64,000 bases of DNA from a virus (IMGVR_UViG_2706796186_000001:96001-160000); one strand, 5' to 3'; positions 3,882 through 52,673 are shown, numbered from the stretch's first letter. Translations and numbers: made by a program. The notes: a model not told the origin generated them from the sequence alone.

Positions 3882-4167
3882 CATCAATCGTTCTGTCGCG
3901 CGTTCTAAAGAAGTGGTTTACGATGTGGTCTCTGGTGAAAAGACCCTGTTCCGTGCGGTGATTGTCGAGAACAACGAACTGCTCGTGGTCTATCCGGGTG
4001 GCGAGTTCTCTAAAGCGGAAAAGGTGGCACTGGATAAACTCATCACCAAAGCGAAACACCGCGACGGGATTTCTATCCACCGTGTGGTTAATGGTCGTGA
4101 GTTAGTGGAGAATGGCAAAGACTTAGAAGTGCGTCCCGTGAGCACGCAAGTCAACGCCTTTGTATGA
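3871..4167 (+). CDS. Hypothetical protein
   Basis: AAGGAG RBS before the ATG at 3871 (MQTSINRS...). Confidence 0.7.
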   Translation: MQTSINRSVARSKEVVYDVVSGEKTLFRAVIVENNELLVVYPGGEFSKAEKVALDKLITKAKHRDGISIHRVVNGRELVENGKDLEVRPVSTQVNAFV

Positions 4168-4794: not shown

Positions 4795-5130
4795 ATGTGG
4801 CTTAGCGCAATTCACCGTGATTTACCAAAAATCGTTGACTTCGGTACCAGCGTGACTGGCGACCCGAATGTCGAACCGGTACAAATCGATGTGGGTCTGG
4901 CGAAGTTCGACCGCATGGAAGAAGGTCAGTTCGTGGTTCTCGATGCTGAAGAGAACGAATACATGCTGTTCCACCCGGAAGTGGATGTCGCGGGCATCGT
5001 TGACGGTGTGTGGTTAGCATCGTGGCACGATAAGTCCACGGACAAGTGGATGTGGGCGCTGGCAAAACAAGTCGGTGATAATTCATTCGTTCTGGATACC
5101 AAGCACCATGTTGAGCCCGTCCCTCATTGA
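4795..5130 (+). CDS. Hypothetical protein
   Basis: GAGGA RBS, 111 aa. Confidence 0.7.
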   Translation: MWLSAIHRDLPKIVDFGTSVTGDPNVEPVQIDVGLAKFDRMEEGQFVVLDAEENEYMLFHPEVDVAGIVDGVWLASWHDKSTDKWMWALAKQVGDNSFVLDTKHHVEPVPH

Positions 5131-5434
5131 TGTCCGCGATGAGCTGTCGACGAATGATTACCTCATTCGGATGCAGTCCGCGTTTCAAAAGCCGTTAGGT
5201 GGCCCACCGGAAGCACGTCAGGTGTACGCACAGGTCATCGGGGTGGATAACAAAGAGGTTCACTTCACGAACCTTGAAACCAAACTCGACTTCACCATGC
5301 CCCTGAACGTGTTTCTGTTTGTGCCTGCTCTCGGTTTGCCAGTTGAGATTAGTCGCGTGCATCACCGCATCTTCTGTTGGCCTGATGTCCACAAAGAGAA
5401 CAGCGATCCTATCCAGCTGCAAATTCGCCTGTAA
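5108..5434 (+). CDS. Hypothetical protein
   Basis: Fills the operon gap; start uncertain (5075 or 5108). Confidence 0.55.
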   Translation: MLSPSLIDVRDELSTNDYLIRMQSAFQKPLGGPPEARQVYAQVIGVDNKEVHFTNLETKLDFTMPLNVFLFVPALGLPVEISRVHHRIFCWPDVHKENSDPIQLQIRL

Positions 5435-10863: not shown

Positions 10864-11054
10864 CGTATTTGACGCTCGCAGTTGTTTGGTTGCTGGCTCT
10901 GGTGGGTGTAGGCCACTTAGCCAGTCAACTAACGATTAAGTTTAAGTGGGACATGGGCATCTCTGTTTTACTCGCGGCGGTAGGGGGTTGGGCTATAACC
11001 TTCCCCTATATCTACTTCGTTGTTGTACCACTTTATCAAAATATCGGAAATTGA
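10860..11054 (+). CDS. Small two-TM membrane protein
   Basis: GTGA overlap with hslU, AAGGAG RBS, two hydrophobic segments. Confidence 0.7.
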   Translation: MTYLTLAVVWLLALVGVGHLASQLTIKFKWDMGISVLLAAVGGWAITFPYIYFVVVPLYQNIGN

Positions 11055-11058
11055 GAAC

Positions 11059-11532
11059 ATGGAAAAGAAAACTGAACGTAACTTGATTGAAATCACAGGC
11101 AAGGGCGAAGACAACAACGGCAAGTTCTATTCCGTCGTGTTGTTAGACCAGTCCAAGATGAACGCTAATGGTCGTCAGTATAACGGCGATCTTGCGCATC
11201 TGGTGCGCGGTATCAAACGCATGCCGCGACTGTTCTGTGAAGTTGACCCGTATCACGATTACCGCTTCCAGTTCCCGGTAACCGATGACCGTTCTGTTTC
11301 TGGACCATGTACGGTCGACATGAAAAACGTTTGTGCATCTATCGAGAACATCCGTCACGATAAGATGAACCAGCGTGTGTCGGCTGAGCTGCGTCCGTGG
11401 GGCCCGCAGGCTTCGATGGTGCGTGATCTGTTGGACGGGGTCAACCAGAACGTGACCTTCGGGATGCGTGCGTTGGCAACCCCTGATGGCAAGATTGATA
11501 AAGTCATCACATGGGATTTGTTACCAGAATGA
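11059..11532 (+). CDS. Prohead protease (T4 gp21/phiKZ gp175-type)-like protein, probably inactive
   Basis: NANGRQY, LFCEVDP, VCASI, RPWGP, NVTFGMRA in the order seen in these proteases, but without the catalytic His/Ser at the expected positions. Confidence 0.55.
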   Translation: MEKKTERNLIEITGKGEDNNGKFYSVVLLDQSKMNANGRQYNGDLAHLVRGIKRMPRLFCEVDPYHDYRFQFPVTDDRSVSGPCTVDMKNVCASIENIRHDKMNQRVSAELRPWGPQASMVRDLLDGVNQNVTFGMRALATPDGKIDKVITWDLLPE

Positions 11533-11563
11533 ATATCGCCGAACTGTTCTAATGAAAAAAAGC

Positions 11564-11587
11564 TCAGATAGATATTATCTTGATGAG
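11564..11587 (+). promoter_or_regulatory. Putative phage early promoter
   Basis: TCAGATAGATATTATCTTGATGAG. Confidence 0.7.
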
Positions 11588-11657
11588 CTTTCCATTATTA
11601 GTTCCAAGGAAGGTGCGTTTTACAATTACAATAAATTAAAATAATAAGGAGTCCGTC

Positions 11658-11834
11658 ATGGATAAAATTTATATCGTTACAGCAATCCTCTTTACCATCG
11701 CCTGCTTACTCAGCTGGCGTGTATCATCTAACATGAAACGTCGTAAGTGCCCACCGGGTGCTATCGCGTTTGGTGTTCAAGCCTGTGTTTATGGTTTTGT
11801 GGCCATCTACACCGGTGTGAAGTATTTCATCTAG
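11658..11834 (+). CDS. 58-aa two-TM membrane protein (absent from ORF track)
   Basis: TAAGGAG RBS; MDKIYIVTAILFTIACLLSWRVSSNMKRRKCPPGAIAFGVQACVYGFVAIYTGVKYFI; flanked by a promoter motif and a terminator. Confidence 0.8.
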   Translation: MDKIYIVTAILFTIACLLSWRVSSNMKRRKCPPGAIAFGVQACVYGFVAIYTGVKYFI

Positions 11835-11840
11835 CAGTAA

Positions 11841-11873
11841 AAAAGGGGCACGGAAGTGTCCTTTTTCTTTTTT
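11841..11873 (+). terminator. Rho-independent terminator
   Basis: AAAAGGGGCAC-GGAA-GTGTCCTTTT plus T-tract. Confidence 0.8.
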
Positions 11874-11893
11874 CGTAAAATAAGGAGTATCAA

Positions 11894-12958
11894 ATGCCAC
11901 GTCTCTTAGCGTTTACCGGTGGAATTGATTCCACATGGGTGTTGCAGAAGTTAATTCAACAACCGTCATCCGATGGCGGTGAAGTGATTCATCCGGTGTA
12001 CATGGATTTCTATCAAGGTTCTCCGGCAGCCATTGTCGAGTTCCTGCTCGGCAGCGAAATCGCCCTGCGGCTGTTAAAGCACAACAAAGACAATTATAAA
12101 GAGCCGCTGGAATGGCGCTCACCCCCGTTGCAAATTTTCACCAGCTGTATTATCGGTCGCTCAAACGGAAACGAAAGTCGCCTGATTCAACAGGGTAACA
12201 CCGTGTTGGGTTTGGCACACCTGATGAATGCGGTACAAGCTCGCCATCCGGGGTCTACCGCCTTAACCGGCTGGAACAAAGCCGATTTCATTGAAAACAG
12301 TGCGCTGCAAGGCGAGTGGTCTGAAGAGGATTACCTGCGCCTGAAAAAACTCTACAGTGAAATGATGTTCTTCCAAGACCATCACTATCGCTGTTCTCCA
12401 CTTCTCACCCCGGCGTGGGATATGGAGAAGAAAGACATGTGGGATGCACTCCCGACTGATGTGCAAGAACTGATCACTGTGTGTTCAACCTACATGTTTA
12501 AGATTTACCATGTTAAGTCCGAGAACGCGCTGTACATCTCCTGTAACCCACAACACTTCGGTAAGTCTGTGCGGTATCTGGCCCGTGGGATTAACCTCAC
12601 GGCTGCCTGGCGTATAGCGATTGACGACGAGTTCCATCGCCGTCTTAACACAGACAACGTCCCGAGTAACCACTTCGCTGGAAGCTTCCCAAGTGAGTTG
12701 CTATCGTCGACCGAAACGAAGCACCGGCCATCACTGCGCATGCGTTCCGATGACCGCAACCTGCAAATCGAAGCCTACAGTATCGATGAGTGGAAAACGA
12801 AGTTTGACCATGTAGAAGATATGCTAAAGGTGGAACGTGAACGAGAACAAGCCGAGTACCGTGCCCAGCGAGAAAAAGAGAAAGCTGAAAGTCCGGACAG
12901 TGCAAATCGCGAAGTGGCGGAAGGCGAAGTCGCTGTTTCCAGCGGTGCCGCTGATTGA
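11894..12958 (+). CDS. PP-loop ATPase, QueC-like
   Basis: N-terminal LLAFTGGIDST (SGGxDS-type PP-loop), IHPVYMD, LLTPAWDMEKKD..ELITVC; full QueC Zn-binding Cys cluster not evident. Confidence 0.6.
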   Translation: MPRLLAFTGGIDSTWVLQKLIQQPSSDGGEVIHPVYMDFYQGSPAAIVEFLLGSEIALRLLKHNKDNYKEPLEWRSPPLQIFTSCIIGRSNGNESRLIQQGNTVLGLAHLMNAVQARHPGSTALTGWNKADFIENSALQGEWSEEDYLRLKKLYSEMMFFQDHHYRCSPLLTPAWDMEKKDMWDALPTDVQELITVCSTYMFKIYHVKSENALYISCNPQHFGKSVRYLARGINLTAAWRIAIDDEFHRRLNTDNVPSNHFAGSFPSELLSSTETKHRPSLRMRSDDRNLQIEAYSIDEWKTKFDHVEDMLKVEREREQAEYRAQREKEKAESPDSANREVAEGEVAVSSGAAD

Positions 12959-39510: not shown

Positions 39511-40221
39511 TCAGGCGTTTAACAGTGGAATCTGCGTAATCGGTTGACTTAACGGCTGCGGTTCCCAAGTGACCGTTACAGCGTTAAATGCACGCTTGAT
39601 GTTCTGGTAGCGCGCATTCACACAATGGGCGTGTTTCACATCCCAACGTTCATGCTCAGGAATCGCGTTTTCAATCTGTTCACGGAAGAACAGATAGTTG
39701 CGATTGTAGTTCAGCGTGACATCCGAAATTGACGGGTAGCTGTACTGATGCGGGTTATCGTTCTTATCGGCATACGACGGCCAGCCGAAGTTCTTCACCG
39801 CTTCGTAAAACGAGTTGGCGAGGAATGATTCGACCTTCATCATTTCCATAATCCGCAAGAACATCAAATCCGCAAACGGCTTGTCCGTTGCCCGTGACAG
39901 ATTGCCCGCCGGAGTATCCGGGTAGGGTACTGGGGACGGGGCTTTCTGATACAGCAGGTCGTGGATACAGGCAGCTGCCGCCCAAGGGCCATCAGGGTGC
40001 AGAATCGGCTGTAAGGCAGCTGGGATACTCGCCAAGTCCGTGACGAAGCCCGCGGGGGCGGTGACATACATCAGCGTGTCAGGATGAATACCAGAACGGT
40101 ACACCATGTCATCCAAGCCCGGATGGTCACGGTACAATGCCCTCAGCGTAAACGGTACCCGGAAGTCGTCTGTCAGAATGAACCACTGCTTATCTAACAC
40201 TTTATACTTCAACTCGTTCAT
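39511..40221 (-). CDS. DUF1353 domain protein
   Basis: PAGFVTDLASIP..AAACIHDLLY..ADLMFL signature. Confidence 0.8.
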   Translation of the reverse strand: MNELKYKVLDKQWFILTDDFRVPFTLRALYRDHPGLDDMVYRSGIHPDTLMYVTAPAGFVTDLASIPAALQPILHPDGPWAAAACIHDLLYQKAPSPVPYPDTPAGNLSRATDKPFADLMFLRIMEMMKVESFLANSFYEAVKNFGWPSYADKNDNPHQYSYPSISDVTLNYNRNYLFFREQIENAIPEHERWDVKHAHCVNARYQNIKRAFNAVTVTWEPQPLSQPITQIPLLNA

Positions 40222-40334
40222 GAAAGTGCCACCTTAACCATACTGAGCACCACCATGCCTATAATCGACCCCCACAACACATACGCAGGTGGATCATCCT
40301 CGGTAAAGAATTTTGTCGGTACAGAATTGTTCAT
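40218..40334 (-). CDS. 38-aa single-TM protein (absent from ORF track)
   Basis: MNNSVPTKFFTEDDPPAYVLWGSIIGMVVLSMVKVALS; TAAGGG RBS; ATGA overlap with the DUF1353 gene. Confidence 0.6.
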   Translation of the reverse strand: MNNSVPTKFFTEDDPPAYVLWGSIIGMVVLSMVKVALS

Positions 40335-40993: not shown

Positions 40994-41034
40994 AAGAAAA
41001 AAAAGAAAAGCGACCCACCCCCGAAGGAGTGGGT
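40994..41034 (-). terminator. Rho-independent terminator closing the radical SAM operon
   Basis: Minus strand ACCCACTCC-TTCG-GGGGTGGGT plus T-tract. Confidence 0.8.
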
Positions 41035-41039
41035 ACGAC

Positions 41040-41696
41040 TTAGGCTACACCGTTATCCGCAGCAAGCTGCTTAACTGCGGTGAAGTCTTTTTGTTCCGTG
41101 AGGATACGGATGCGTTGTTTCAACACAGACATGACCATGTGCAGGTCATTGTCACGCGTGATGATTTCCGCATAGAGGGCTTTAACGTCCTCCACCGTCC
41201 ACGGCTCGATAGGCTCGTTGTTCAGCGTCATCCAGTACATCGGGTCAACCCCGGACTGCATGTAGCTTTGCATCGATTCGCGCGACTTCTCGTCAGCTTG
41301 GAACGTCTTGTCACGGAAGGTAATGGGTGCAAACCGTTCCGCGTTATACTTGTCGTTCAGTTTCGGATAAATCGCATTGACTTCCTGATAGAGGTAGTTC
41401 TCCGTCGAGGTCAGCGCGGTACGTACGTGGTCTAAATCAATCTCCAGCACGTCAGCAATAAACTCTTTGGTTTTCTTCATCAGGAATTCAATTTCAACCG
41501 GTGACAGGTCAAAGCCTTTGAGTTTCTCGCGGGCTTTCTTGTCACTCATACCGTTAATCAGATGGTAGTGCAGTAGCAGGCAGAACCCGATACGGTTTTC
41601 CATCTGGTCTTGGTATTCTTCCACGTAGTTACCGTAGCGGTCGATACGCGTGCCCCGTTCGAAATAACGGGCTTTTATTTCGTCGTTACTAAGCAT
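41040..41696 (-). CDS. DUF4376-like (tail-fibre-assembly-associated) protein
   Basis: C-terminal FQADEKSRE..WMTLNN..WTVEDVKAL..H..LKQRI pattern. Confidence 0.6.
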   Translation of the reverse strand: MLSNDEIKARYFERGTRIDRYGNYVEEYQDQMENRIGFCLLLHYHLINGMSDKKAREKLKGFDLSPVEIEFLMKKTKEFIADVLEIDLDHVRTALTSTENYLYQEVNAIYPKLNDKYNAERFAPITFRDKTFQADEKSRESMQSYMQSGVDPMYWMTLNNEPIEPWTVEDVKALYAEIITRDNDLHMVMSVLKQRIRILTEQKDFTAVKQLAADNGVA

Positions 41697-42232
41697 CCGG
41701 ATTCTCCTGCAATCCCAAGGTCAACCAGCAGACCGAAGTCAATGAACTGGAAATCATTTTCCAACTCTTCGCCCCAGAGCAGTTTGGCCTCTTCTGCTTC
41801 ATCACCCATCTCTTCCAGCGTCTTACGTGCCACTTCGAATTCGTGGTAGAACGCATCGGTCAGGTGTGTACCGCGTAATGCACGCACAGTCACACCAGGG
41901 AAGTTCAGGGCCAGTCCCACAACGTTGGTTGGGTCTGCATCACCGGTAGAACGGCGCAGTACCTGCAACTTGTGTTTTGGGAACGCCACCACACGTTTTT
42001 CGAAACCGGGATTACGTTTCTCGATTTCGACAACGGACTGGTGATCGTCTTCCACGCCCTGTAAAGGCAGGATGACATTCAGGCCATAACGGTTCAACAG
42101 ACGAATGGTGTCATCGTTGAAATCTTCACCCGGCACGATCGCATGGATGTTGTACAGCTTGTGTTTGCGAATGAACGCATCGACAAGGTGAACGTTACGC
42201 CGAGTAAAATTGTGAATCAGCAATGACTTCAT
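41675..42232 (-). CDS. Hypothetical protein in radical SAM operon
   Basis: 185 aa, overlaps both neighbours. Confidence 0.7.
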   Translation of the reverse strand: MKSLLIHNFTRRNVHLVDAFIRKHKLYNIHAIVPGEDFNDDTIRLLNRYGLNVILPLQGVEDDHQSVVEIEKRNPGFEKRVVAFPKHKLQVLRRSTGDADPTNVVGLALNFPGVTVRALRGTHLTDAFYHEFEVARKTLEEMGDEAEEAKLLWGEELENDFQFIDFGLLVDLGIAGESGCLVTTK

Positions 42233-43541
42233 TCGAGGCTCCGAGTTCTAATTTAAGTTTATCTGCTTTCATGCGGTCACGCACGCAGCTCGCACAGTAG
42301 CACATGGATTTATCGTGCAGGTCGGCGACATTCGTGGTACCGGTTTTCTGATACCAGTATTCGGACACCAACAATTTCGCGGTCGTCCAACCACACTGGC
42401 GTCGCTCAGCATGGTACTCTTTACGCGCTTCCAGCTCGCCGTCACCGTTCTCGTAAGAAGCAGCCGCACAGCTACCGCACGAGTGTTTCATCGGGCAGCC
42501 TAAGCAGGTAGACGGGTAGTTGGTGTACTGCGTCTGAATTTCGTTCAGTAGTTTGTGACCGTCAATGTTCACAATCTCACGCCCACGCAGTTCTGCTACC
42601 GCTGAACGGGTGGTTACGGTTGACATGAAGCGGTTACAGCCGTAAATCTTACGGTCGAAGCCAAGACAGGTCATGTGGGTCAGCGTACCGCAGTAAGGAC
42701 GTACACGGTCTGGGTGCAGACGGGTTGCTTCATCGTCCAGCAACTTCTGACGCCAGTCCGGGTCCCATGTCGCCATGAAGTCCAGCCCATCAGGAATGAT
42801 GTGGGTCAGGATGTTACGTGGTGACTTGTGGTAGCCGTTGTCGACCCAGTAATCGATAACGTCAATCATCTGGTTTGCGATACCCAGAGCCATATCACGC
42901 GACAGAATGTCTTCGTACGTGACGTTACCGGAGATGGTACCACCGCCCGTTTCTTTAATCAGGTGAATCATGCTCTCGCCGTAACGAGGCAGGGTCTCAC
43001 CGGTAAAGGTGGCTTTGATACCGAGTTCTGCAATACCGACAGATTTCAGGTATTGGTAGCCGCGCATCGCCTGCTCGTACGAGCCTTCACGCGAAGTGGT
43101 GAAGATACGATAGCGGTCGTGTACTTCTGGCAGACCATCGATGGACACACCAATCGACAGACGGTCTTTCCAGCGTTCAATGATTTCTTTGCTGATAGGA
43201 CGGTCGAACAAGGTGCCGTTGGTAGAAATAGAGAATACGTACTGGCGGTTGTCGCGCGCCGCTAACTCTTCGGCTGTCTCAAAGACGGCTTTCAGAATCT
43301 TCGGCTGCATAAACGGCTCACCCCCGATGATGTCGATAATGATTTCGGCATCTTCGATGTGACGGTCGCGGTCAAAACACGCATGAATAAAATCGACAGC
43401 GTCATCCACTTTGTTGTTGCGCGGATACTTACGTTCGTAGCAATACGAACAGTCGAGATTACAAGACAGGTTAGTTACGACCTGATACGTGAGTGTGGGG
43501 CGCTGTTTACGCGTCTGCGATGAAGATCGTTCTTCACTCAT
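42195..43541 (-). CDS. Radical SAM/SPASM peptide maturase (CXXX-repeat-target type)
   Basis: CNLDCSYC, IIGGEP, STNGTL, GVSIDG..HDRYR; C-terminal YCG..IYGCNRF..CLGCPMKHSCGSC..QCGW SPASM-like cysteines. Confidence 0.9.
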   Translation of the reverse strand: MSEERSSSQTRKQRPTLTYQVVTNLSCNLDCSYCYERKYPRNNKVDDAVDFIHACFDRDRHIEDAEIIIDIIGGEPFMQPKILKAVFETAEELAARDNRQYVFSISTNGTLFDRPISKEIIERWKDRLSIGVSIDGLPEVHDRYRIFTTSREGSYEQAMRGYQYLKSVGIAELGIKATFTGETLPRYGESMIHLIKETGGGTISGNVTYEDILSRDMALGIANQMIDVIDYWVDNGYHKSPRNILTHIIPDGLDFMATWDPDWRQKLLDDEATRLHPDRVRPYCGTLTHMTCLGFDRKIYGCNRFMSTVTTRSAVAELRGREIVNIDGHKLLNEIQTQYTNYPSTCLGCPMKHSCGSCAAASYENGDGELEARKEYHAERRQCGWTTAKLLVSEYWYQKTGTTNVADLHDKSMCYCASCVRDRMKADKLKLELGASNEVIADSQFYSA

Positions 43542-44431
43542 TTGATTACCTCATTGCGATGTTTGCGAGCGTGGATCGTGCGATTGATGTAACGGTAGGC
43601 TTCTTGCCCAATGACTTTCGCCAGCATGTTACAACCGCTATCGATTTCCATCTCGACATCCATCGTGTAGCCGATAGACGCATCGGAGTCCAGACGAACC
43701 AGACCGCTGCACGCGTTGCACGACTGCTCAAAGAACTTGCTGATGGAGAACCCAGTTGAGCCATTGTTCATGACATTCAGGCGTTCAATCTGGTCTTCCA
43801 TTTTGTTGTAGCCGAACATGAAGTTCATCACCAAATCTTGGTTCAGAGGTTTCTTCATGCGGTTGTCCAACAGCAGCGTCATGTCTTTGAAGCCGTAGTG
43901 GTGGAGTGCGCGGTGTAAGTCCAGCAGGTCAGTGTGCCAATATTTATCAGCCAACTGCTCACGAGTCACCACGGCCCACGTATGGACGTTGTTCAGCGCA
44001 GCCATCACTTCGAAGGCTTCGAATGCACCATCTTCAACGACACGCCAGAGCGGACGTTCGCTCTTTTTGTATCCATCGAACGACACACAGATACGGTTAA
44101 ACTGTTGCAGCATCGGGAGATGTTCCAGACGCATTTTCAGACCGTTCGTGTACAGCTCGTGAGTGAGATGTGGATAACGGGCTTTGACTTCGGCCAGCAA
44201 TGGCTCAATCTTCCGGGTCGCCATTAATGGCTCACCACCCGTCCAGTTCATCCCTTGTAAAGTCGGGTACTTCTCCAGTTGTTCAAACAGCGCTTCACGC
44301 TGAATTTCCCGACCAACATCTTTTGTGTCCATGTAATACGCTCCGCCGCAGAAACTACAATCCAAATTACACTTGGACGTCGTCACTATCGACAGCTCGG
44401 TAGGGGGACGTATTTGTGGTGCATCGGTCAT
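43538..44431 (-). CDS. Second, shorter radical SAM protein
   Basis: CNLDCSFC, WTGGEPL, YTNG, VSFDG; short C-terminal CNAC..GCN; ATGA-coupled to the next gene. Confidence 0.85.
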   Translation of the reverse strand: MTDAPQIRPPTELSIVTTSKCNLDCSFCGGAYYMDTKDVGREIQREALFEQLEKYPTLQGMNWTGGEPLMATRKIEPLLAEVKARYPHLTHELYTNGLKMRLEHLPMLQQFNRICVSFDGYKKSERPLWRVVEDGAFEAFEVMAALNNVHTWAVVTREQLADKYWHTDLLDLHRALHHYGFKDMTLLLDNRMKKPLNQDLVMNFMFGYNKMEDQIERLNVMNNGSTGFSISKFFEQSCNACSGLVRLDSDASIGYTMDVEMEIDSGCNMLAKVIGQEAYRYINRTIHARKHRNEVIK

Positions 44432-44449
44432 TGCAGATTGCTCCAGTTT

Positions 44450-45328
44450 TTAATAGATCGCGAAAAGGGGGTCGTCCTCAAACTTCGCGCCCACATCCAG
44501 AAGGAAATCGGAGTGGTAGGCATCGAGTATTTGATTCAGAACAGCCTGACGGTCGTTAATCCGTTTAAGATCATCGAGTGTCACGCTTCGCGACTTGATG
44601 TTTGAAACTGCCTTTTCTTCGTCAGCTGTTAAGGAAACCTTCGACAGAAGGAAACTTACCAGCTTGCTCAGGTCAGCCTCGGTACCCGGTGCTTCACCGT
44701 AACGCAATTGAACCAAGAACTGCATCCACGGTTTGCGGATACGGCGACTGATTTCATGTGGATCGGTAATCGCTTCGAACTGCCCATCTACCGCATTCCA
44801 GCGAAACTTGTAGCTATACGCCAGTAAGTCAGCCAGACAATGGATACCGAGCGTTTCATAACCTAAGATGTGATGGTATTTTTCCACACCTTTATATTCT
44901 TCCGTGCCGGTCGGTACTACGGTGTACCAGAACGGATTAGAAGACGGGTAGTCCCAGCTCCACTCGCGACGAACCATGGGAATGACGTCCAAATCCGCAA
45001 ACGGCGTGAAGATCATTTCCAAATCCATCGAGTGGTTCAGGACTGCATCAGTAAAGAAATACTTACCGTCAATCAGTCGGCCACTGGCGTTCAGCTCGCC
45101 TTCATTAAACTTCACATGCTGAACAGTGTGCTTACCGATGGAGTAGGTATTCTCTTCGGTGTACTGCTTACGTGTAATATCCCGCCCACGTACCTTAGGC
45201 CATTCGCCTGGCAGCATCGAGATAAGGCGTACTTCGTCAGCGATGTGTGCTTTCACACTGTCGTACGACGAAATGTGTAACGGGAAATTTTGCGTCGTGC
45301 GGTACGCCAAATGGAGGTCGTTCTTCAT
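44450..45328 (-). CDS. Hypothetical protein in radical SAM operon
   Basis: 292 aa with AAGGA RBS, between the precursors and the rSAM genes. Confidence 0.75.
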   Translation of the reverse strand: MKNDLHLAYRTTQNFPLHISSYDSVKAHIADEVRLISMLPGEWPKVRGRDITRKQYTEENTYSIGKHTVQHVKFNEGELNASGRLIDGKYFFTDAVLNHSMDLEMIFTPFADLDVIPMVRREWSWDYPSSNPFWYTVVPTGTEEYKGVEKYHHILGYETLGIHCLADLLAYSYKFRWNAVDGQFEAITDPHEISRRIRKPWMQFLVQLRYGEAPGTEADLSKLVSFLLSKVSLTADEEKAVSNIKSRSVTLDDLKRINDRQAVLNQILDAYHSDFLLDVGAKFEDDPLFAIY

Positions 45329-45346
45329 GGTTTCTTTATCCTTACT

Positions 45347-45556
45347 TTATCGGTTACCCGCGCCGTAACTGCACCCACCACTGCACGACCAGCTACAGCT
45401 ACCGTTGCAGTTATAATGCGAGAGTGGAAGCCCAGCAAGGTTGTTGGTCGAACTGACCGTGCCGCGTGTGGCGATATAGTTATTGGCCTGTGCGGTCGTG
45501 ATGTAGCCTTCGACGTTCTGCACCCGATCGCGAATGTTTTTCAATGAGATTGCCAT
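45347..45556 (-). CDS. Cys-rich CXXX-repeat precursor peptide 3 (short)
   Basis: Leader MAISLKNIRDRVQNVE; core CNGSCSWSCSGGCSYG (4 Cys); GAGGA RBS. Confidence 0.85.
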   Translation of the reverse strand: MAISLKNIRDRVQNVEGYITTAQANNYIATRGTVSSTNNLAGLPLSHYNCNGSCSWSCSGGCSYGAGNR

Positions 45557-45577
45557 AGGTCCTCACTCGATAGAGTT

Positions 45578-45970
45578 CTATCGACTGCCTGAACAGCCAG
45601 AGCATCCCGTACAACTTGAACTACAGGAACCGGAACAGTTACCGGAGCATGTACCCGAACAACCGGAGCACCCACCCGAACACGAACCAGAACATCCTGA
45701 GCACCCACTGGTACACCCAGCAGTACAGCTCGACGAACATGAGGAACCGCAGCCCCCTGATGCCGAACCGGAACAGCCACCTGAACAGCTAGAGCAACCC
45801 CAGCTACAGGTTCCGCCGCAATCGTAATGAATACGTCCTTGGCCGCCGAATAAGTCGACGTTATTGGTTGCCTTATTACGGATGTAGGTTTGTACCCCAC
45901 CTTCCGTTTTTAAGGAGTTCGCTTCGATCACTGCAATGCGATCCGCGATGTTTCGTAAGTTGATAGCCAT
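45578..45970 (-). CDS. Cys-rich CXXX-repeat precursor peptide 2
   Basis: Leader MAINLRNIADRIAVIE; 20 Cys in CXXX/CXX Ser/Gly repeats; GGGAG RBS. Confidence 0.9.
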   Translation of the reverse strand: MAINLRNIADRIAVIEANSLKTEGGVQTYIRNKATNNVDLFGGQGRIHYDCGGTCSWGCSSCSGGCSGSASGGCGSSCSSSCTAGCTSGCSGCSGSCSGGCSGCSGTCSGNCSGSCSSSCTGCSGCSGSR

Positions 45971-45979
45971 TGTTTCTCC

Positions 45980-46369
45980 CTACTGTGGACCAGAGCAACC
46001 AGAGCAACCGGTGCAGCTGGAAGAACACGACCCGGCGCAACCACCGCCACACTTACCACTGCACGAAGACGCACAGGTACCTGAGCAACCTGAACAACCC
46101 GAACACCCACCGCCGCAGTTAGAAGAACAGCTACCCACGCACGTAGAAGTACAGGTTCCTGCACAGCTAGTACAGCTTGCAGAACACCCGTTAGAACACG
46201 ACCAGCTACAACTGCCGCCACAATCCAGACGGGAGGGAGACCACCCACTGAACGAGTCCGCAGCGTTGTAAGCTTTCGATGCAACCTGCCCGTCTACACG
46301 AGCCCCGGTAGCATAGTTTGCTTCCACATTGTTAACGCGGTCGCGTATGTTTTTCATTGAAATCGCCAT
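45980..46369 (-). CDS. Cys-rich CXXX-repeat precursor peptide 1
   Basis: Leader MAISMKNIRDRVNNVE; 21 Cys in CXXX/CXX repeats; AAGGA RBS. Confidence 0.9.
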   Translation of the reverse strand: MAISMKNIRDRVNNVEANYATGARVDGQVASKAYNAADSFSGWSPSRLDCGGSCSWSCSNGCSASCTSCAGTCTSTCVGSCSSNCGGGCSGCSGCSGTCASSCSGKCGGGCAGSCSSSCTGCSGCSGPQ

Positions 46370-46405
46370 ACGTTTCCTTTGTCAATAAAAAAATGAGGAC
46401 GCTGC

Positions 46406-46431
46406 CATAATGACAGCACCTCATGTAATAA
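46406..46431 (-). promoter_or_regulatory. Putative middle-type promoter of the precursor/rSAM operon
   Basis: TTATTAC-N15-TATG on the minus strand, overlapping an imperfect hairpin plus T-tract. Confidence 0.6.
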
Positions 46432-46434
46432 GTG

Positions 46435-47634
46435 TTATCGTGAACCCGCTTCGGCTTGTACGTCGTCGCGAGAAGTCAGGCTGCTGTTGACGTGTACTGC
46501 CGCCTGAACCACACCGCCGTACTGCTTGTGGAGATAGTTCGGGTGTGGGTTATCTGCGTTAACGTGGTTCTGGAGATTCTGCGACAGGGTGTTAATGGAG
46601 TTCTGCAATCCAGCAACTTGCTGTTTCAGTGCATTCAGCTGACCAGAGAGATCCTGAATCTGCTGCTGCGTATCGGAACCGGCGGATTCCAAATCACTGA
46701 TGCGCTGCTTGAGCCCATTGATGACTTGGTTCTGGTCATTGATCATCTTCTGGAGTTGTAACACCAGAGAGTTCAGGTCGGCCTGTTGTAACGCCGCCTT
46801 TTGGTAGTTCAATGCCACCGAATTCAGTTGGTCATTCCACGAACCGAGTGCACTGACCACCGCATCGATACGCGCACCGAGTGCTGTGTCCGCTGCTTTC
46901 AAATTACCGATGTCAGCGAGGACAGCGTTAATGGCAGTCTGAACCGTTTGAATCAGCGCGCGAATTTCGGTTTCAGTGAGACCGTTCGCCTGATGAATAT
47001 CCAGTGCGTGAACATTACCTTTGGCATCGATGTGCGATTGTAGCGCCGCCATCATCTGGGTTTGCATGTCAGACATGGCTGCCAGAATCTGCTGGAGCTG
47101 AACTTCGTTACCGGAGTTAATCGCATCGGTCATCAACGCGAGTTGCGTAATGATGTATTCGAAACCAAACAGGTCGCCGAGGTCTTTAAAGGCCGGAGCC
47201 GCTGCAAAGGTATCCGGGACATTACGCAGGTCAGCGAAGTCAACTTTGCGGTCTTCAAGGTTGGCATCAGCCAACGCCTGTTTAATCGCAGAGATAACCG
47301 CCGACTGTGGGCCACCGACAACCTGTGCAAGACAGACGATATCGGTTGGGATAGCCGGGTTAGTGACGACCACACCCATACAGATTTCGCGGTTCTTAGC
47401 AAGCTTCATGTACGCCGGATGGATGTAAATCAGCTCGTAGTCGGTACCGCGTTTATAAATGGTGTTGGGTTGATTGGCAGGCCGCATACGGAACGTATCC
47501 GCAAAGAACGGCCCTGCTGGGAAAGCGAACGCACGGTTGACCTTCCCCCCACCTAACACAACCGGGACATTGACCGCGTTACTGGACGCAGCCCCTGTCA
47601 GGTCAAGTGGGTATTGAAATAGAATATCTGGCAT
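46435..47634 (-). CDS. Putative baseplate/tail-fibre-associated coiled-coil protein
   Basis: YPLDLTG..GPFF..GTDY N-terminus shared with upstream fibre genes; long Gln/Leu heptads; HVNADNPHPNY motif; GGGAG RBS favours ATG 47634. Confidence 0.7.
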   Translation of the reverse strand: MPDILFQYPLDLTGAASSNAVNVPVVLGGGKVNRAFAFPAGPFFADTFRMRPANQPNTIYKRGTDYELIYIHPAYMKLAKNREICMGVVVTNPAIPTDIVCLAQVVGGPQSAVISAIKQALADANLEDRKVDFADLRNVPDTFAAAPAFKDLGDLFGFEYIITQLALMTDAINSGNEVQLQQILAAMSDMQTQMMAALQSHIDAKGNVHALDIHQANGLTETEIRALIQTVQTAINAVLADIGNLKAADTALGARIDAVVSALGSWNDQLNSVALNYQKAALQQADLNSLVLQLQKMINDQNQVINGLKQRISDLESAGSDTQQQIQDLSGQLNALKQQVAGLQNSINTLSQNLQNHVNADNPHPNYLHKQYGGVVQAAVHVNSSLTSRDDVQAEAGSR

Positions 47635-47681
47635 GGCCAAACTCCCTTAGTGAGACGTCCTTGTCTCGACGTGTTAGATGG

Positions 47682-50600
47682 TTACGGCAACTTAGGCATA
47701 AGATTGACCGTCAGTTTTGACGGGGTGACCGTTCCGCCGTAATAGTTGACCCCGTTGCCGATGTACAACGCGTTGTCGGCAATAAGCATGGGTATCGGTT
47801 GGCGGAAGATGACATCTCCATGAACAATCGGGAAATAATCATCGATGGAAACACCTGCTGGCATGGCGACTTTATAAACATCAAGCACACCACCAGTGAT
47901 ACGCCCCGCCGCACCCTGTACGTTCGTTATGGCACGAATGGCCACAGTAGCAGCATCGGAGATATAGAACACCGTCGCTGTGCCGTTATCCACGTTGGAG
48001 ACACTGAACGCAGCGAACGCGGTGGTCTGACCCCCGTTGATACCATTAAACACGAATGTGTTTTTGACCCCCACCTCGGCAGCAAGTGTGACCTCAGCCA
48101 GTGCAGAAGAAAACGTTGCAGAAACATCGAGGTTGGCGTTGGTACATCCAATGGTGCCGGAGCCCAAAGAGTAACCACTCTTCAATTTGATTTTCACCGT
48201 CGGGGTCGACGGGGTAATCTCCACAATCATTTTCCACGCAATCGAGATGACAGCCGACATCCCCGGAATACCCACCAAATACGCATTGTCTACATCAGAA
48301 GCCTGACCAAAGTTGGCACCCTTCATCGTGAACTTCTTGTAGTCTTTAGGCAAGGTAGCGACCGGCGCATCCCGCAGCAACTCGATAGGAACCTTGTGGC
48401 TTTGAGACGCGAAGACCGGGCCAATCTGCGACATATCCAGATACCCATCACCGGTAGCCGCCGGAGCAGAAAGGGGTTGCTTACGCAATAGCCCCAGTCG
48501 CGAAAGCCGCGCTTCACTGTCCACATTCACATCGTGGCTGTAGACCGTGGCGGTATGCTCCGCCAACTGTTTCAACTCGCCCAAGCGTTTCACTTTTGTG
48601 AACTCAGACGACAAGATACGCTGACTGTCGGTGACTACCGTCCCGATAAACAACCGGGTATCCGTATCGGGCATTTTCTGCGTCAAAAGCTGGTATTCCG
48701 GTTTGCCGTTCACCACCGCCGCGTGCATGTAGAACGTACGGTTTTGGTACGCACCGGGGAACAACGTCTTGAGGTTCTGGTTATACGCATCCAACGTGTA
48801 ATAGTCGGAACCAAACCGTAAGCTCTCAGACTCGGTGATGTACAGCTCCCACCCTTCTGCGGTTTTTACCCCAGCAACGATTGCAACATTCCCCGCAGGG
48901 GTGTAGTTTGTCACCCCTGCCGCAACAAAGTCGTTCGGTGGTGCGCTTGGGCCTGCGAAATAAGACGGTGAAATCACCTGCCCGTTTGACCGCAGCATTC
49001 GCTCCCCAACAAACGAAAGGATGGTAGCATAGTTGTAAAACGTGCTGCCGAGCACCCCCGCCTTCGTCGCCGTCAGCTTACCTCCGTTCAAACTGAAAAT
49101 CAGCTCAAGGTGGTACGCCGCGGATGACCCCACGACCTGCCGAATCATGAAGTTCGGCAAGTGCATGATGCCCGTACCGTCACCTTTCTCGTAGAAGATT
49201 GGTTGGCCCATTCTGCTGCTGTGCCCAGAATAGTTGGTATTCTGAATGAGTTGCAGGTTGCTGTACGTCGCGATGTTGGTGTATACAACGTCAGCTGTGG
49301 TCGTGACCAGCTGAACAACCCCGTTCACGACGCTCGGGTAGATTTGGAACGTAACATTCCCTAACCGCTTATTGCCGTTATAGAGTGCGTAGTACGACAT
49401 TTGTGCAATCCAAATCGGATTGGCATCAAGGGGTCGAATCGCCCACACGGAAAAGAGGAGGTTAATCGGGTTGGCAATGCTGTCCGCCACCTCACCTGCC
49501 GGTGCTGCCGCTTTTAAGGCCGCCGTTATCTTGTTCCATGTGTCGGAGGACAACGTAAGGGTATCGGCTTTTGGTACCGCACCCACGGCCTGGTACCGCT
49601 TCACACCGGGACCGTTCCAATACGCGCCGTTTAACTTACCCGACTGGAGCGTGGATGTCGCACACCACGTCATGTCTGCCAAAGCGTAGTAATCGTCAAC
49701 CGAGAAATTGCGGCGCACGTTACTCGGCCCTGCGCCCAAGTACGCGGGACCGTATGTTGTGTTTGGGTCTACCTCGACATACACCGCGCTGTTGGCGTTG
49801 GCGGGACTAAACAGATACGCATTATTGCCCAGATACACCGGATGGGATTGACCGACAGAATACACCGAGCCAATACCGCCCGTGAACTGCCAGTTCGCCA
49901 GAGAGGTGTAACCGCTTTTGTGGTCTCCTGCGATAAAGTCGTAGAAGTCCGCGTCCATTGTCGAGTGTGCTAACCCGTTGGGGAGGGTGTCCTGAGACTG
50001 ATCGTAAATAGACCATGCACGTTGGCCAACCCCTTGGAACACCCGCATGCGGTTATCAGCATTGCCGTACGGGAACCGAACTTTCCAGCCTGCCTCTTTG
50101 AGCTTTGTCCCAGTGGCAAGATACACATCGTCCGCATCGATTTTGAATGGGAAGATATCTGCATTATCCAGCGAGACCGTCAACGTATCCATGTCAATCT
50201 GGAACGAAGTCGCCCAAGTGAAACGGCCATACGAGTCATCAGGGCTCAACAATAACAGGGTGCTCAAAATACCTACCCTGGTCATGTTCTCGCGCTGCGC
50301 TACCGCATACGTCGCGATGTTGTGTGCGATGTTGCGCAGGTTACCCCAGCGTACTTTACCGGCCTCGGTCACATAGGTGGTGCCCTGTGTCGCAGGGTCG
50401 GTCGCATCGGTGTCTGTGTTAGCGCGCAGCAACACTGAGATACCGTTGACGCTGTTCCCCCCTTTGAGAGCAGCAGGGGTGTAAACCATCTTGTCCCCAC
50501 TGACTGACCCTACTAACGCATAGACACTGTACTGGGTATTGGTCAATTCCAGATGAAGAATGTAGACCTTCCCTTTATACACGATGGTTTGTTCGCGTGT

Positions 50601-52673
50601 CTGATCGCCGAGGTAGCCACTGACCGTGCCGTTCGCGTCGAACGAGGCAGGGAATTCACTCCGATACACCTGTTTGTGTTTGGTGTAGTTCAGTGTTCCT
50701 TCTAGCATGACTGTGTAGAAATATCCGTCGCTGCCTAAACAGACAAGTGCCGCATCGCCTGACGCAACCAGTGTGAGTAGCCGGACACCGGGATACTTAC
50801 TCATTCCCGCTGGGTGGTATGGGAACGACGTCTGCTGCTCCCCTGCAATTGACCCATCGTTGTTTACACGGGCATAGCCGTAGTAAATGCGATCGGTGTT
50901 CGGCAATCCGTCGTTTGCATTGCGTAACAGGTAAACGATGTCTCCTTCCTGCTTGACTGCCCCCAACCCTTTCCAGCTCAGCTGTTTCGCAAAACCGGCA
51001 AAATTCCCCACCGTTGGAATAGGCAGGAACCCACTGTTACCGTACGAGGCACCCCCAGTCGTCCACGACGGCAACAGACCGTCCAACACGTCTTTGTACG
51101 TATTAAGGCGCTGTTGTACGTTATAGCCCTGCTTTGACGTCACCACTTTGTTCGTGGTGGTATCAATCGCATCCCACAGTTGCAACAGACCTGCGTCCGT
51201 ATCAGACGCCGTTGGTACGCCCGTCAGGTCGGCAAACGTGTGCGTGTGGTTTGCCAGAGCCTTATTTGCCAACACCGCACGAATGGCGTTGGTCAACGGT
51301 TTCTCAGCAGGCGCGGTGTTGTTGATGTTACCCACACCTAAATCGGCGGTCGTTAAGGTAAGGGACTGTTTCGTACCGTCATCAATGAACTTCTTCCCGT
51401 TAATGGTGTACGTGTTGTCCACGTAATCATCCAGCGTCTTTTTCAGGACGTTAACAGCATACTGCGAAATCGCGGTACCCGAAGAAATATTTGCAGACAG
51501 GTTGGTGATAGCAAACAGCCCCGGCACTTTGTCAGTTGCCGTGGGCAGTTGCGCGTTCATGGTCAGTGGAGAAGACTGCTTCGCTGTACCGAATACCTTG
51601 ATGGTGTCGGTTGGAGAAAAGTAAGCGTTCCCCGGTAAGAGTTTTACTTCGGACAGGTACAACGAGACCATGTCCGGTGTGACCAGATATGCACCGTTAA
51701 AGATGGGTGCCACTGCGCCGTTGAGCACATAAGCCGTGTTCAGCCCCGAGCCCAACTCAACCCCCACACCCCGTTCGTTACTGTCTGCATCAGCAGTGAT
51801 GTTGATAGCACGGGTGGTGGTAATAAGGAACTTATCGCCTTGCAGGGTGATAACATGGCTCGAGTCGGCGGTACGGAATGTCAACGCACCGTTATTCAGC
51901 ACCTTGAGGCGACCACGCAGTTCACCAAGCACCACAGGCATCAGGGTATCGATGTGAGCTTGCTGAATGCCGTTTGCTTTCATGATAGCGACTAACTCAT
52001 CCAGCGTTTTACCGAATGCCTTCGTCGAGTCTACCGCTTTGGTCAGTACCTTTAACGCCCCAATCTCATCCGCAGTGTATTGGTGTGCGTTTTTGATACG
52101 ATGGTGGCTGTACATGTTGTCGTCGAAAATCTTTTTACCGTTGGCAAAAATCAAATCGGTGACCTCGGCGTACGCCACATCCATATCGCCTGCCCGCTTA
52201 ATCAAACCTTGACGGATATCATCCAGCGCTTTCACGACTTCATCGCGGAGCAGGGCTTCATCTAAGTTGGCAGGTGGGTCAATTGCAGGAACCACTGGTG
52301 CATAACGCATCAGTTCAGACCAGTCGGTGTTACGCGGGTCTTTGATGTCCTCTTTCACCAAGAACTTGCCAATCTCGGTCTGTGGTACGCGGTATTCGCG
52401 ACCAATCGAATAGATCGTGTAGTCAACAGAGGTGTCTCCGTTAATCAACATAATCCCGCCGTAGATTTGGTCTTTCATTGCGACAGCGGCTTCTTTATAA
52501 TAGTAGCCGAGGTAGTAATCCAGACCCTCAATGAGCTTCACGCCTGCGCTGTTTTTCAGCTCAAGCCCGGTACGGAAGAACGGCCCCTCAGGAGGGATGA
52601 CCACATTGTATTTGTTCGGATATGTGGTCGTCAGTAGCGTACCGGTAAATTTGGCTACGTTCGTGCTCGCCAT
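47682..52673 (-). CDS. Large tail-fibre-like virion protein
   Basis: 1663 aa; GPFF..GLDY N-terminus, NAH, LGVGNINNT, HTHTFADL fibre motifs; beta-rich C-terminus. Confidence 0.7.
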   Translation of the reverse strand: MASTNVAKFTGTLLTTTYPNKYNVVIPPEGPFFRTGLELKNSAGVKLIEGLDYYLGYYYKEAAVAMKDQIYGGIMLINGDTSVDYTIYSIGREYRVPQTEIGKFLVKEDIKDPRNTDWSELMRYAPVVPAIDPPANLDEALLRDEVVKALDDIRQGLIKRAGDMDVAYAEVTDLIFANGKKIFDDNMYSHHRIKNAHQYTADEIGALKVLTKAVDSTKAFGKTLDELVAIMKANGIQQAHIDTLMPVVLGELRGRLKVLNNGALTFRTADSSHVITLQGDKFLITTTRAINITADADSNERGVGVELGSGLNTAYVLNGAVAPIFNGAYLVTPDMVSLYLSEVKLLPGNAYFSPTDTIKVFGTAKQSSPLTMNAQLPTATDKVPGLFAITNLSANISSGTAISQYAVNVLKKTLDDYVDNTYTINGKKFIDDGTKQSLTLTTADLGVGNINNTAPAEKPLTNAIRAVLANKALANHTHTFADLTGVPTASDTDAGLLQLWDAIDTTTNKVVTSKQGYNVQQRLNTYKDVLDGLLPSWTTGGASYGNSGFLPIPTVGNFAGFAKQLSWKGLGAVKQEGDIVYLLRNANDGLPNTDRIYYGYARVNNDGSIAGEQQTSFPYHPAGMSKYPGVRLLTLVASGDAALVCLGSDGYFYTVMLEGTLNYTKHKQVYRSEFPASFDANGTVSGYLGDQTREQTIVYKGKVYILHLELTNTQYSVYALVGSVSGDKMVYTPAALKGGNSVNGISVLLRANTDTDATDPATQGTTYVTEAGKVRWGNLRNIAHNIATYAVAQRENMTRVGILSTLLLLSPDDSYGRFTWATSFQIDMDTLTVSLDNADIFPFKIDADDVYLATGTKLKEAGWKVRFPYGNADNRMRVFQGVGQRAWSIYDQSQDTLPNGLAHSTMDADFYDFIAGDHKSGYTSLANWQFTGGIGSVYSVGQSHPVYLGNNAYLFSPANANSAVYVEVDPNTTYGPAYLGAGPSNVRRNFSVDDYYALADMTWCATSTLQSGKLNGAYWNGPGVKRYQAVGAVPKADTLTLSSDTWNKITAALKAAAPAGEVADSIANPINLLFSVWAIRPLDANPIWIAQMSYYALYNGNKRLGNVTFQIYPSVVNGVVQLVTTTADVVYTNIATYSNLQLIQNTNYSGHSSRMGQPIFYEKGDGTGIMHLPNFMIRQVVGSSAAYHLELIFSLNGGKLTATKAGVLGSTFYNYATILSFVGERMLRSNGQVISPSYFAGPSAPPNDFVAAGVTNYTPAGNVAIVAGVKTAEGWELYITESESLRFGSDYYTLDAYNQNLKTLFPGAYQNRTFYMHAAVVNGKPEYQLLTQKMPDTDTRLFIGTVVTDSQRILSSEFTKVKRLGELKQLAEHTATVYSHDVNVDSEARLSRLGLLRKQPLSAPAATGDGYLDMSQIGPVFASQSHKVPIELLRDAPVATLPKDYKKFTMKGANFGQASDVDNAYLVGIPGMSAVISIAWKMIVEITPSTPTVKIKLKSGYSLGSGTIGCTNANLDVSATFSSALAEVTLAAEVGVKNTFVFNGINGGQTTAFAAFSVSNVDNGTATVFYISDAATVAIRAITNVQGAAGRITGGVLDVYKVAMPAGVSIDDYFPIVHGDVIFRQPIPMLIADNALYIGNGVNYYGGTVTPSKLTVNLMPKLP

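Follow-up and report, generated by a model that had tools for sequence, protein, structure and literature searches.

Cys-repeat proteins encoded beside radical S-adenosylmethionine (SAM) enzymes have been described in several settings. The closest in composition to the locus considered here is the TIGR04115 maturase with its TIGR04114/PF27846 target, in which a radical SAM/SPASM enzyme without an N-terminal recognition domain is encoded beside proteins with a Cys at every fourth residue. This system has a bioinformatic definition, and no biochemical study of it was found; its near-members in gut-phage contigs also occur among tail-fibre genes. The thioether-forming maturases CteB (thermocellin), PapB (ranthipeptides) and SCIFF share with our locus a CX3CX2C motif, a seven-Cys SPASM set and Cys-rich substrates. 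The nearest experimentally studied architecture is HXS, an antiphage system of HxsA with HxsB, HxsC and HxsD, where a SPASM radical SAM enzyme, a short radical SAM enzyme and a small partner mature a repeat-bearing protein (Li et al. 2026, PMC13128918). Here we analyze an eight-gene cassette on the minus strand (positions 41040-46369) of a 64,000-nucleotide (nt) stretch of viral DNA, IMGVR_UViG_2706796186_000001:96001-160000, referred to below as the window. The cassette encodes three small Cys-repeat proteins, two radical SAM enzymes and three accessory proteins, and it is probably a post-translational maturation system for a Cys-repeat module carried by tail fibres or by virion appendages that resemble them.

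Compared with the TIGR04115/TIGR04114 system, the window adds a short radical SAM enzyme, a family of proteins of 292 amino acids (aa) and a CxGxCSW junction in the Cys-repeat proteins. In contrast to the CteB, PapB and SCIFF systems, it has no recognition domain of a known kind, Asp/Glu acceptor, leader protease or exporter, and the substrates of related enzymes in the window family are large structural proteins. The cassette comprises the following genes, in order of transcription:

45980-46369, minus strand: Cys-repeat protein A, 129 aa (phrog_6085, E 1e-48; orthologues in all SPN3US-like loci; codon-position test)
45578-45970, minus strand: Cys-repeat protein B, 130 aa, 20 Cys (phrog_6085, E 1e-50)
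45347-45556, minus strand: Cys-repeat protein C, 69 aa, 4 Cys (phrog_6085, E 4e-29)
44450-45328, minus strand: 292-aa accessory protein, SPN3US gp165 family (phrog_8030)
43538-44431, minus strand: short radical SAM enzyme, 297 aa (Pfam Radical_SAM, 44.8 bits)
42195-43541, minus strand: radical SAM/SPASM enzyme, 448 aa (Pfam Radical_SAM; best NCBIfam match TIGR04115)
41675-42232, minus strand: 185-aa protein, SPN3US gp162 family (phrog_7988; AlphaFold2 model)
41040-41696, minus strand: DUF4376 protein, 218 aa, SPN3US gp161 family (Pfam DUF4376, 39.8 bits against a cut-off of 25)

The window belongs to an SPN3US-type jumbo phage, and over the 5.4 kb of the cassette it shares 96-97% identity with Salmonella phage pSal-SNUABM-04 and Erwinia phages pEa_SNUABM_42/43 (genus Machinavirus). 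The cassette had been recognized in an earlier reading of the DNA made from the sequence alone (hereafter the sequence-only reading) as eight co-oriented genes with short gaps or overlaps, and the open reading frames (ORFs) agree with this: intergenic gaps are 9-21 nt, and successive overlaps among the last four genes measure 4, 38 and 22 nt, suggesting coupled translation.

Proteins A, B and C are indeed the Cys/Ser/Gly-rich neighbors of two radical SAM enzymes that the same reading had noticed. They contain 21, 20 and 4 Cys, respectively, the first at residue 50, 51 and 50, with a spacing of four in 31 of the 42 intervals and of three in another 10. Their cores are ~80% Cys/Ser/Gly and are built from Cys, Ser, Gly, Thr, Ala and Asn, with no Asp or Glu. 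All three start with a ~45-residue N-terminus specific to the jumbo-phage group, followed by the junction A-x-N-x-x-x-L-x-G-Q...Y-x-C-x-G-x-C-S-W-x-C; a CXXX/CXX ladder of Cys, Ser and Gly follows the junction in A and B only. In protein A the N-terminal segment is 49 aa long, the junction reads CGGSCSWSC and the 21 Cys are set at CXXX/CXX spacing; in protein B the junction reads ATNNVDLFGGQGRIHYDCGGTCSWGC, a motif common to the fibre proteins of five loci from other phages (L017, L020, L105, L107 and L110).

Protein C is a minimal version that stops just after the junction and has little beyond this motif. Residues Y48, C50, G52, C54, S55 and W56 are invariant in its alignment (A3), in which the CR5/Phobos/Derbicus orthologues, like the Kwan orthologue, keep only the two Cys of CxGxCSW. 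The orthologues in L011, L012, L013 and L014 (CR5-, Phobos-, Derbicus- and Kwan-type) end in ...CNGSCSW(S/T)SSGGAKAVTWPS and have lost the later Cys. From these alignments CxGxCSW appears as the minimal conserved unit of protein C, and the retention of this Cys pair alone hints that the junction may itself be a site of modification or recognition.

It should be noted that the low-complexity Cys-repeat genes have open frames on both strands. In comparisons with four other genera, the third codon position of this Cys frame changes 2.5-4 times as often as positions 1-2, which identifies the Cys frame as the coding one. No signal peptide or hydrophobic N-terminus was found in the small proteins. 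They score below the thresholds of the target-repeat models TIGR04114 and PF27846, and searches of Pfam and NCBIfam at E <= 0.1 gave no match to them except TIGR04118 (E 0.09) for the 69-aa protein.

Both enzymes pass the Pfam Radical_SAM model, and one of them is of the SPASM type and resembles CXXX-repeat and PapB maturases, so the assignment of two radical SAM proteins holds. The 448-aa enzyme has CX3CX2C at residues 27-34 and seven conserved C-terminal Cys, a SPASM-type set; C27, C31, C34, C284, C302, C346, C349, C355, C358 and C383 are invariant in 26 homologues. Its top NCBIfam match is TIGR04115, the CXXX-repeat target maturase, at 126.6 bits, short of the cut-off of 350, and its score for PapB (NF047865) is 125 bits against a cut-off of 340. 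The features expected of TIGR04115 enzymes are present, namely CX3CX2C together with the SPASM Cys set and adjacent CXXX-repeat genes, of which there are three upstream. The first tier of relatives scores 144-188 bits for TIGR04115, and the enzyme of gut-phage locus L016 scores 300.6 bits. Among solved structures the closest relative is the thioether-forming CteB (PDB 5wgg, E 2.8e-36), followed by anSME. The alignment begins at CteB residue 104, indicating that the N-terminal domain for recognition of peptides that are made on the ribosome and modified after translation (RiPPs) is absent from the 448-aa enzyme. A C-terminal extension of ~50 residues with CYCxSC (window 42195-42350) occurs in the jumbo-phage enzymes of this type and is absent from the 375-400-aa relatives in other phages.

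The 297-aa enzyme has CX3CX2C at residues 21-28 and conserved C238, C241 and C267 (alignment A6), a twitch-like count, and its PDB matches cover the barrel only. In a 284-kb contig (IMGVR_UViG_3300028886_000034; L109:7134-9194) a 686-aa protein fuses a short-radical-SAM-like domain to a SPASM radical SAM domain and contains two CX3CX2C motifs; this natural fusion supports joint action of the two enzymes.

The proposed role is carried mainly by relatives outside the jumbo-phage group, where homologues of the SPASM enzyme at 30-39% identity are found in tail modules of unrelated phages and prophages, accompanied by the 292-aa family and usually by the short radical SAM enzyme. For example, a P2-like prophage of Campylobacter pinnipediorum encodes baseplate proteins W, J and I, a 384-aa Phage_tail_fib fibre ending CNGCSGSCSGSC... 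and a 250-aa protein, followed by the SPASM enzyme, the short radical SAM enzyme and a DUF1353 protein, and then by sheath and tube. In a Deferribacter abyssi prophage, a gpJ-like protein and two small genes are followed by a 302-aa protein with 29 Cys ending ...KATNADQLGGQAGSYYRCSDCSWTCSSSC..., and after this fibre come the 250-aa protein, the short radical SAM enzyme and the SPASM enzyme. In a 213-kb phage contig (L020) the fibre is 568 aa long, contains 30 Cys, has a precomputed PF27846 hit and ends ...NAVTLGGQPPDFYTCGGSCSWSC..., and five more IMG/VR loci show the same pattern of fibre plus enzymes. The 292-aa family and both radical SAM enzymes occur together in six non-jumbo loci (L017, L018, L105, L107, L109 and L110), while L108 lacks the short enzyme and L020 the 292-aa family.

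Tail-fibre PHROGs are among the matches of these Cys-tailed proteins (E 2e-40 and 3e-32), several of which come after the central tail fibre J. At their C-termini they match phrog_6085, to which the three window proteins belong, and their junction motif is visibly the same. Altogether, the 292-aa family, the short enzyme and the SPASM enzyme lie by a fibre gene with the junction and Cys ladder in 15 jumbo and 6 non-jumbo loci. Proteins A, B and C would then be stand-alone 'mini-fibre' versions of a C-terminal fibre module.

At about 25% identity, a more distant tier of relatives corresponds to the classical TIGR04114/TIGR04115 family. A same-strand CXXX-repeat ORF was found nearby in 73 of 80 IMG/VR loci with a relative of the SPASM enzyme, compared with 11 of 80 hits in a genome collection, all 11 within the 26 best-scoring; this collection is a rough control, in which generic radical SAM hits lack a CXXX-repeat gene. 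In the more distant viral loci, many of the genes found upstream of the repeat gene have matches among the tail-fibre PHROGs. One 246-kb contig (IMGVR_UViG_3300042922_000542; L151) has three different Cys-repeat proteins around its radical SAM gene, at 4950-5372, 9297-10952 and 10986-12251, with repeats that include an Asp-rich CDCDRCSCNCDRC-type variant; judging from these variants, the chemistry of the repeat seems to diversify.

The 'RiPP-like peptide' of the sequence-only reading is therefore the wrong frame for this system: homologous substrates elsewhere are fibre proteins of 247-568 aa, which points to maturation of a protein and not of a peptide. A true RiPP pathway would imply leaders of ~49 residues and cores that are cross-linked, cleaved by a host or unrecognized protease and set free as peptides at lysis or kept within the cell, where they would act against competitors or phages or as metal binders. 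Such a pathway would suit the small size of the three paralogues, their conserved N-terminus and repetitive core, and the resemblance of the enzyme to CXXX-repeat, PapB, SCIFF and CteB-type maturases. We nevertheless regard it as unlikely, since a protease, an exporter, an immunity gene and a RiPP-recognition domain of a known kind are all lacking, the homologous module elsewhere forms the C-terminus of tail fibres served by the same enzyme set, and the cassette is fixed beside fibre genes in all relatives. Moreover, the N-terminal parts are well conserved, and protein C keeps 72-81% whole-protein identity across closer genera. Neither the eight genes nor their neighbors gave a match to a peptidase, exporter or immunity family in Pfam, NCBIfam, PHROGs, PADLOC or fold searches, in line with the earlier impression that none is recognizable, and the only PADLOC matches were generic viperin cross-hits. 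With respect to a recognition element, the 448-aa enzyme lacks the N-terminal domain and the best fold match of its 292-aa partner has a Z of 4.2, which leaves room for a recognition domain of a new kind.

The product is accordingly unlikely to be secreted, as had been supposed when a secreted bacteriocin was set aside, and the comparison with tail fibres bearing the same module supports this. Of the two fates then offered, a cross-linked virion part or an intracellular effector released at lysis, the former is favoured by the presence of the same module and enzyme set at the fibre ends of unrelated phages.

Within the SPN3US-like phages the cassette is a fixed element. A tblastn search with the 448-aa enzyme found 62 deposited phage records, 57 of them SPN3US-like, from Seoulvirus, Erskinevirus, Machinavirus, Wellingtonvirus and the CR5/Phobos/Derbicus group. 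The order gp168-gp167-A-B-C-292-short radical SAM-SPASM radical SAM-185-DUF4376 is kept in 15 of 15 SPN3US-like loci, although identity drops to about 60% for the SPASM enzyme and to 31-35% for the last two proteins, and nearby endolysin and DUF1353 genes change place. No related phage in this set thus has the radical SAM genes without the Cys-rich ORFs, all three being retained throughout. The cassette first noticed in the window phage is real but not peculiar to it, as it is fixed in SPN3US-like phages and akin to a large phage-borne family. It forms the 3' end of a long minus-strand block with homologues of SPN3US gp170, gp169, gp168 and gp167, the nearest two of which are given below, and a DUF1353 gene lies on its other side:

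46435-47640, minus strand: coiled-coil virion tail protein, SPN3US gp167 homologue, directly upstream (phrog_2163, E 1.5e-110)
47682-52673, minus strand: 1663-aa baseplate/fibre protein, SPN3US gp168 homologue of the phiKZ gp131-like paralog family (homology; PMC5105663, PMC5694885)
39511-40221, minus strand: DUF1353 protein, 'tail assembly chaperone' in the annotation of relatives

In SPN3US, gp167-gp170 are baseplate/fibre candidates that are present in virions and absent from tailless particles, gp167 among them (PMC5105663, PMC5694885). Mass spectrometry of SPN3US virions lists gp167-171 and does not list gp161-166. Two of the three small genes are unannotated in the SPN3US reference, and 'gp166' is a wrong-frame ORF over the second (L003/L004, NC_027402 / JN641803, 3130-4159); the true ORFs lie at 3130-3522, 3533-3937 and 3953-4159 of L003. 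Since these ORFs are missing from the reference database or mis-framed in it, the published virion proteomics could not detect them. Annotation is also affected in pSal-SNUABM-04 (L001, 8544-9338 and 10655-11277), where two opposite-strand ORFs are annotated inside the repeat genes and the short radical SAM enzyme starts from an internal Met, with loss of CX3CX2C.

The absence of gp161-165 from purified virions, combined with the presence of gp167-171 as tail components, fits enzymes and helpers that act before assembly. The same absence could be accommodated if the Cys-repeat proteins, modified or metal-loaded, were transient scaffolds or chaperones for gp168-170 that do not remain in the particle, a role with which their metallothionein-like composition and the assembly-type annotation of DUF4376 and DUF1353 neighbors in relatives also agree. 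However, the module of the relatives is covalently part of the fibre, and a chaperone role would leave two radical SAM enzymes without explanation; we therefore give such an assembly-only function a low probability, marginally below that of a true RiPP.

A conflict system of the HXS type, in which two radical SAM enzymes and a small partner would act on a repeat protein whose mature form blocks superinfecting phages or counteracts a host defence, is less probable still. The architecture does parallel that of HxsA/B/C/D, an experimentally established antiphage system (PMC13128918), and there are weak hidden Markov model (HMM) matches to HxsB (82 bits) and HxsC (33 bits), but these scores are far under the cut-offs of 370 (TIGR03978) and 268 (TIGR03977). 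HxsA has HxS repeats, a signal peptide and a peptidoglycan-binding domain and serves periplasmic defence, whereas the window proteins lack all three features, carry CXXX repeats and belong to a fibre operon. The generic nature of the viperin cross-hits and the tail-fibre context also argue against it.

The two proteins that had been left as unknowns turned out to be parts of the system: the 292-aa family accompanies the enzymes beyond jumbo phages, and the 185-aa protein has a radical-SAM-like partial barrel. The 292-aa family has 22 representatives among 1.84 billion proteins and is homologous to the 250-aa proteins of the prophages (hhalign probability 99.2% and 95.9%); profile comparison did not match it to the 224-aa (L020) and 202-aa (L016) neighbors. 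Its AlphaFold2 model (pLDDT, the predicted confidence score, 91.7) retrieved only its own orthologue in searches of the PDB (Foldseek), 48,161 representative chains (VIA) and BFVD, the best PDB Z being 4.2. Rows for 'tail fiber assembly protein' at E 0.1-0.6 were scattered among the matches of this model and were given no weight. We propose that the 292-aa protein is a substrate-presenting or chaperone subunit.

The model of the 185-aa protein (pLDDT 89.7) matches best the pyruvate formate-lyase activase domain (Z 9.6), SuiB (Z 8.7; Foldseek probability 1.0, TMq 0.56) and CteB (Z 8.3), values just modestly over those of generic TIM barrels. The Fe-S cluster motif is absent from this protein, profile comparison of its family with that of the 448-aa enzyme gave E 0.21 and so no sequence link, and the family is confined to the jumbo-phage group. 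On the strength of the model, we read it as a degenerate radical-SAM-like subunit with a partial TIM (triosephosphate isomerase) barrel. The Protein Atlas contained no usable match for either the 292-aa or the 185-aa protein. The DUF4376 protein has weak matches to tail-fibre PHROGs and is possibly a fibre-assembly helper.

A DUF1353 gene lies near the cassette in jumbo phages, and in the Campylobacter P2-like prophage a DUF1353 gene (L018:10068-10433) directly follows the two radical SAM genes, in the slot of the P2 fibre-assembly gene. DUF1353 may be a functional part of the system.

Under the fibre-maturation reading, the events would take place late in infection, in the reducing cytoplasm: the 292-aa protein would present the module to the SPASM enzyme and the short, twitch-like radical SAM enzyme, which would modify it. 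The likeliest chemistry would be thioether cross-links from Cys sulfur to carbon along the ladder, giving a covalently stapled, redox-insensitive rod or knot in place of the disulfides that are impossible in the cytoplasm. The degenerate radical-SAM-like 185-aa protein and the DUF4376 protein would be helpers specific to the jumbo-phage group, and the products would join the baseplate/fibre complex encoded directly upstream. That the proteins are modified at all, that the modification is a thioether, that the enzymes divide the labour in this manner and that the products reside in the virion are all points that we infer.

Several observations weigh against this reading. The virion location has no support from SPN3US proteomics, as the ORFs are unannotated there and the cores have almost no tryptic sites, ordinary tryptic peptides being expected from the N-terminal segments. 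The 448-aa enzyme is far under the cut-off of every named maturase family, so that its chemistry is not transferable by family membership, and PapB uses Asp/Glu acceptors that the cores do not contain. An HMM of the N-terminal part only (~45 residues, no Cys) had no match outside the jumbo-phage group, the junction and repeat alone being shared; no relative of the N-terminal ~35 residues was detected among non-jumbo fibres. Composition may account for some of the PHROG score over the repeat, and a size of 69-130 aa with three paralogues resembles RiPP precursors. We also considered the whole 'leader' as a fibre segment; this is unsupported, as the leader-only HMM matched no fibre outside the jumbo-phage group.

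The cassette ends at a terminator-like hairpin, and a second hairpin precedes its first gene:

41013-41034, minus strand: intrinsic-terminator-like hairpin with a UUCG loop and T-run at the cassette end (9-bp stem)
46398-46420, minus strand: hairpin lying after the gp167 homologue and before Cys-repeat gene A (terminator-like in the terminator scan)

The UUCG terminator proposed for the cassette end was recovered at 41034-41013 with its 9-bp stem, loop and T-run. The 'promoter motif' placed at 46406-46431, on the other hand, was not confirmed as a promoter: it overlaps the strong hairpin at 46420-46398, and the flanking 15-mer is unique in the window, with no second copy found there. This hairpin has TATG at its loop and a folding energy of -19 kcal/mol (z -5.9, single-sequence fold); a T-run and then the ribosome-binding site AAGGAAA come after it. 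Equivalent hairpins occur in six other lineages (L002, L009, L010, L011, L012 and L014; z -3.2 to -7.6), so that the element is kept in seven lineages and across genera, with stems that differ in sequence and an invariant TATG loop. RNAalifold predicted no structure on the intergenic alignment because the stems are out of register, and single-sequence folds were used in its place. Late promoters of the phiKZ type centre on TATG, so that the promoter call of the sequence-only reading may be right. Hairpins with a TATG loop are not enriched in the window (5 observed, 5.45 expected). The hairpin may be an attenuator or terminator after gp167, a phage-type promoter element, both, or a processing site.

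Downstream of the cassette, the GH108 endolysin and the DUF1353 gene have between them a 38-aa ORF with a hydrophobic C-terminal half (window 40218-40334, minus strand). In pSal-SNUABM-04 this position is occupied by an annotated hypothetical protein, and Stratton and Kwan have small ORFs next to the endolysin. The 38-aa product may be a membrane peptide associated with lysis.

A structural parallel is provided by phage T4, where His-coordinated ions staple the fibre tips in the needle domains of gp37 and gp12. The likeness lies in a repetitive distal segment of small residues that is stabilized without a hydrophobic core; the difference is that the T4 tips rely on non-covalent metal and have no dedicated enzymes, in contrast to the two radical SAM enzymes here. 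Our literature search found nothing on radical SAM modification of phage fibres or on this cassette, and a 2026 review of jumbo phages mentions neither radical SAM nor RiPP. More tentatively, and with somewhat less than even confidence, we suggest that tailed phages of many kinds, ranging from P2-like and lambda-like prophages up to jumbo phages of 240 kb, staple the distal modules of their host-recognition fibres via dedicated radical SAM enzymes, and that SPN3US-type phages have detached the module as three mini-fibres that dock onto the baseplate/fibre complex.

Peptide antibiotics, the maturation of cofactors and a single antiphage effector are the settings in which this chemistry has so far been known. 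If the proposal is true, radical SAM cross-linking also builds a host-recognition part of a virus, and this would be the first RiPP-type radical chemistry to build a virus structural protein, an enzymatic stand-in for disulfides that yields a stapled adhesin tip. It would offer enzymologists a large phage-borne family of protein-modifying radical SAM enzymes. SPN3US is an established genetic and proteomic model, in which the substrate genes were overlooked because the reference omits two of them and mis-frames the third. For the phages themselves, such stapling would matter for the stability of the fibres and for host range, as well as for efforts to engineer receptor-binding proteins.

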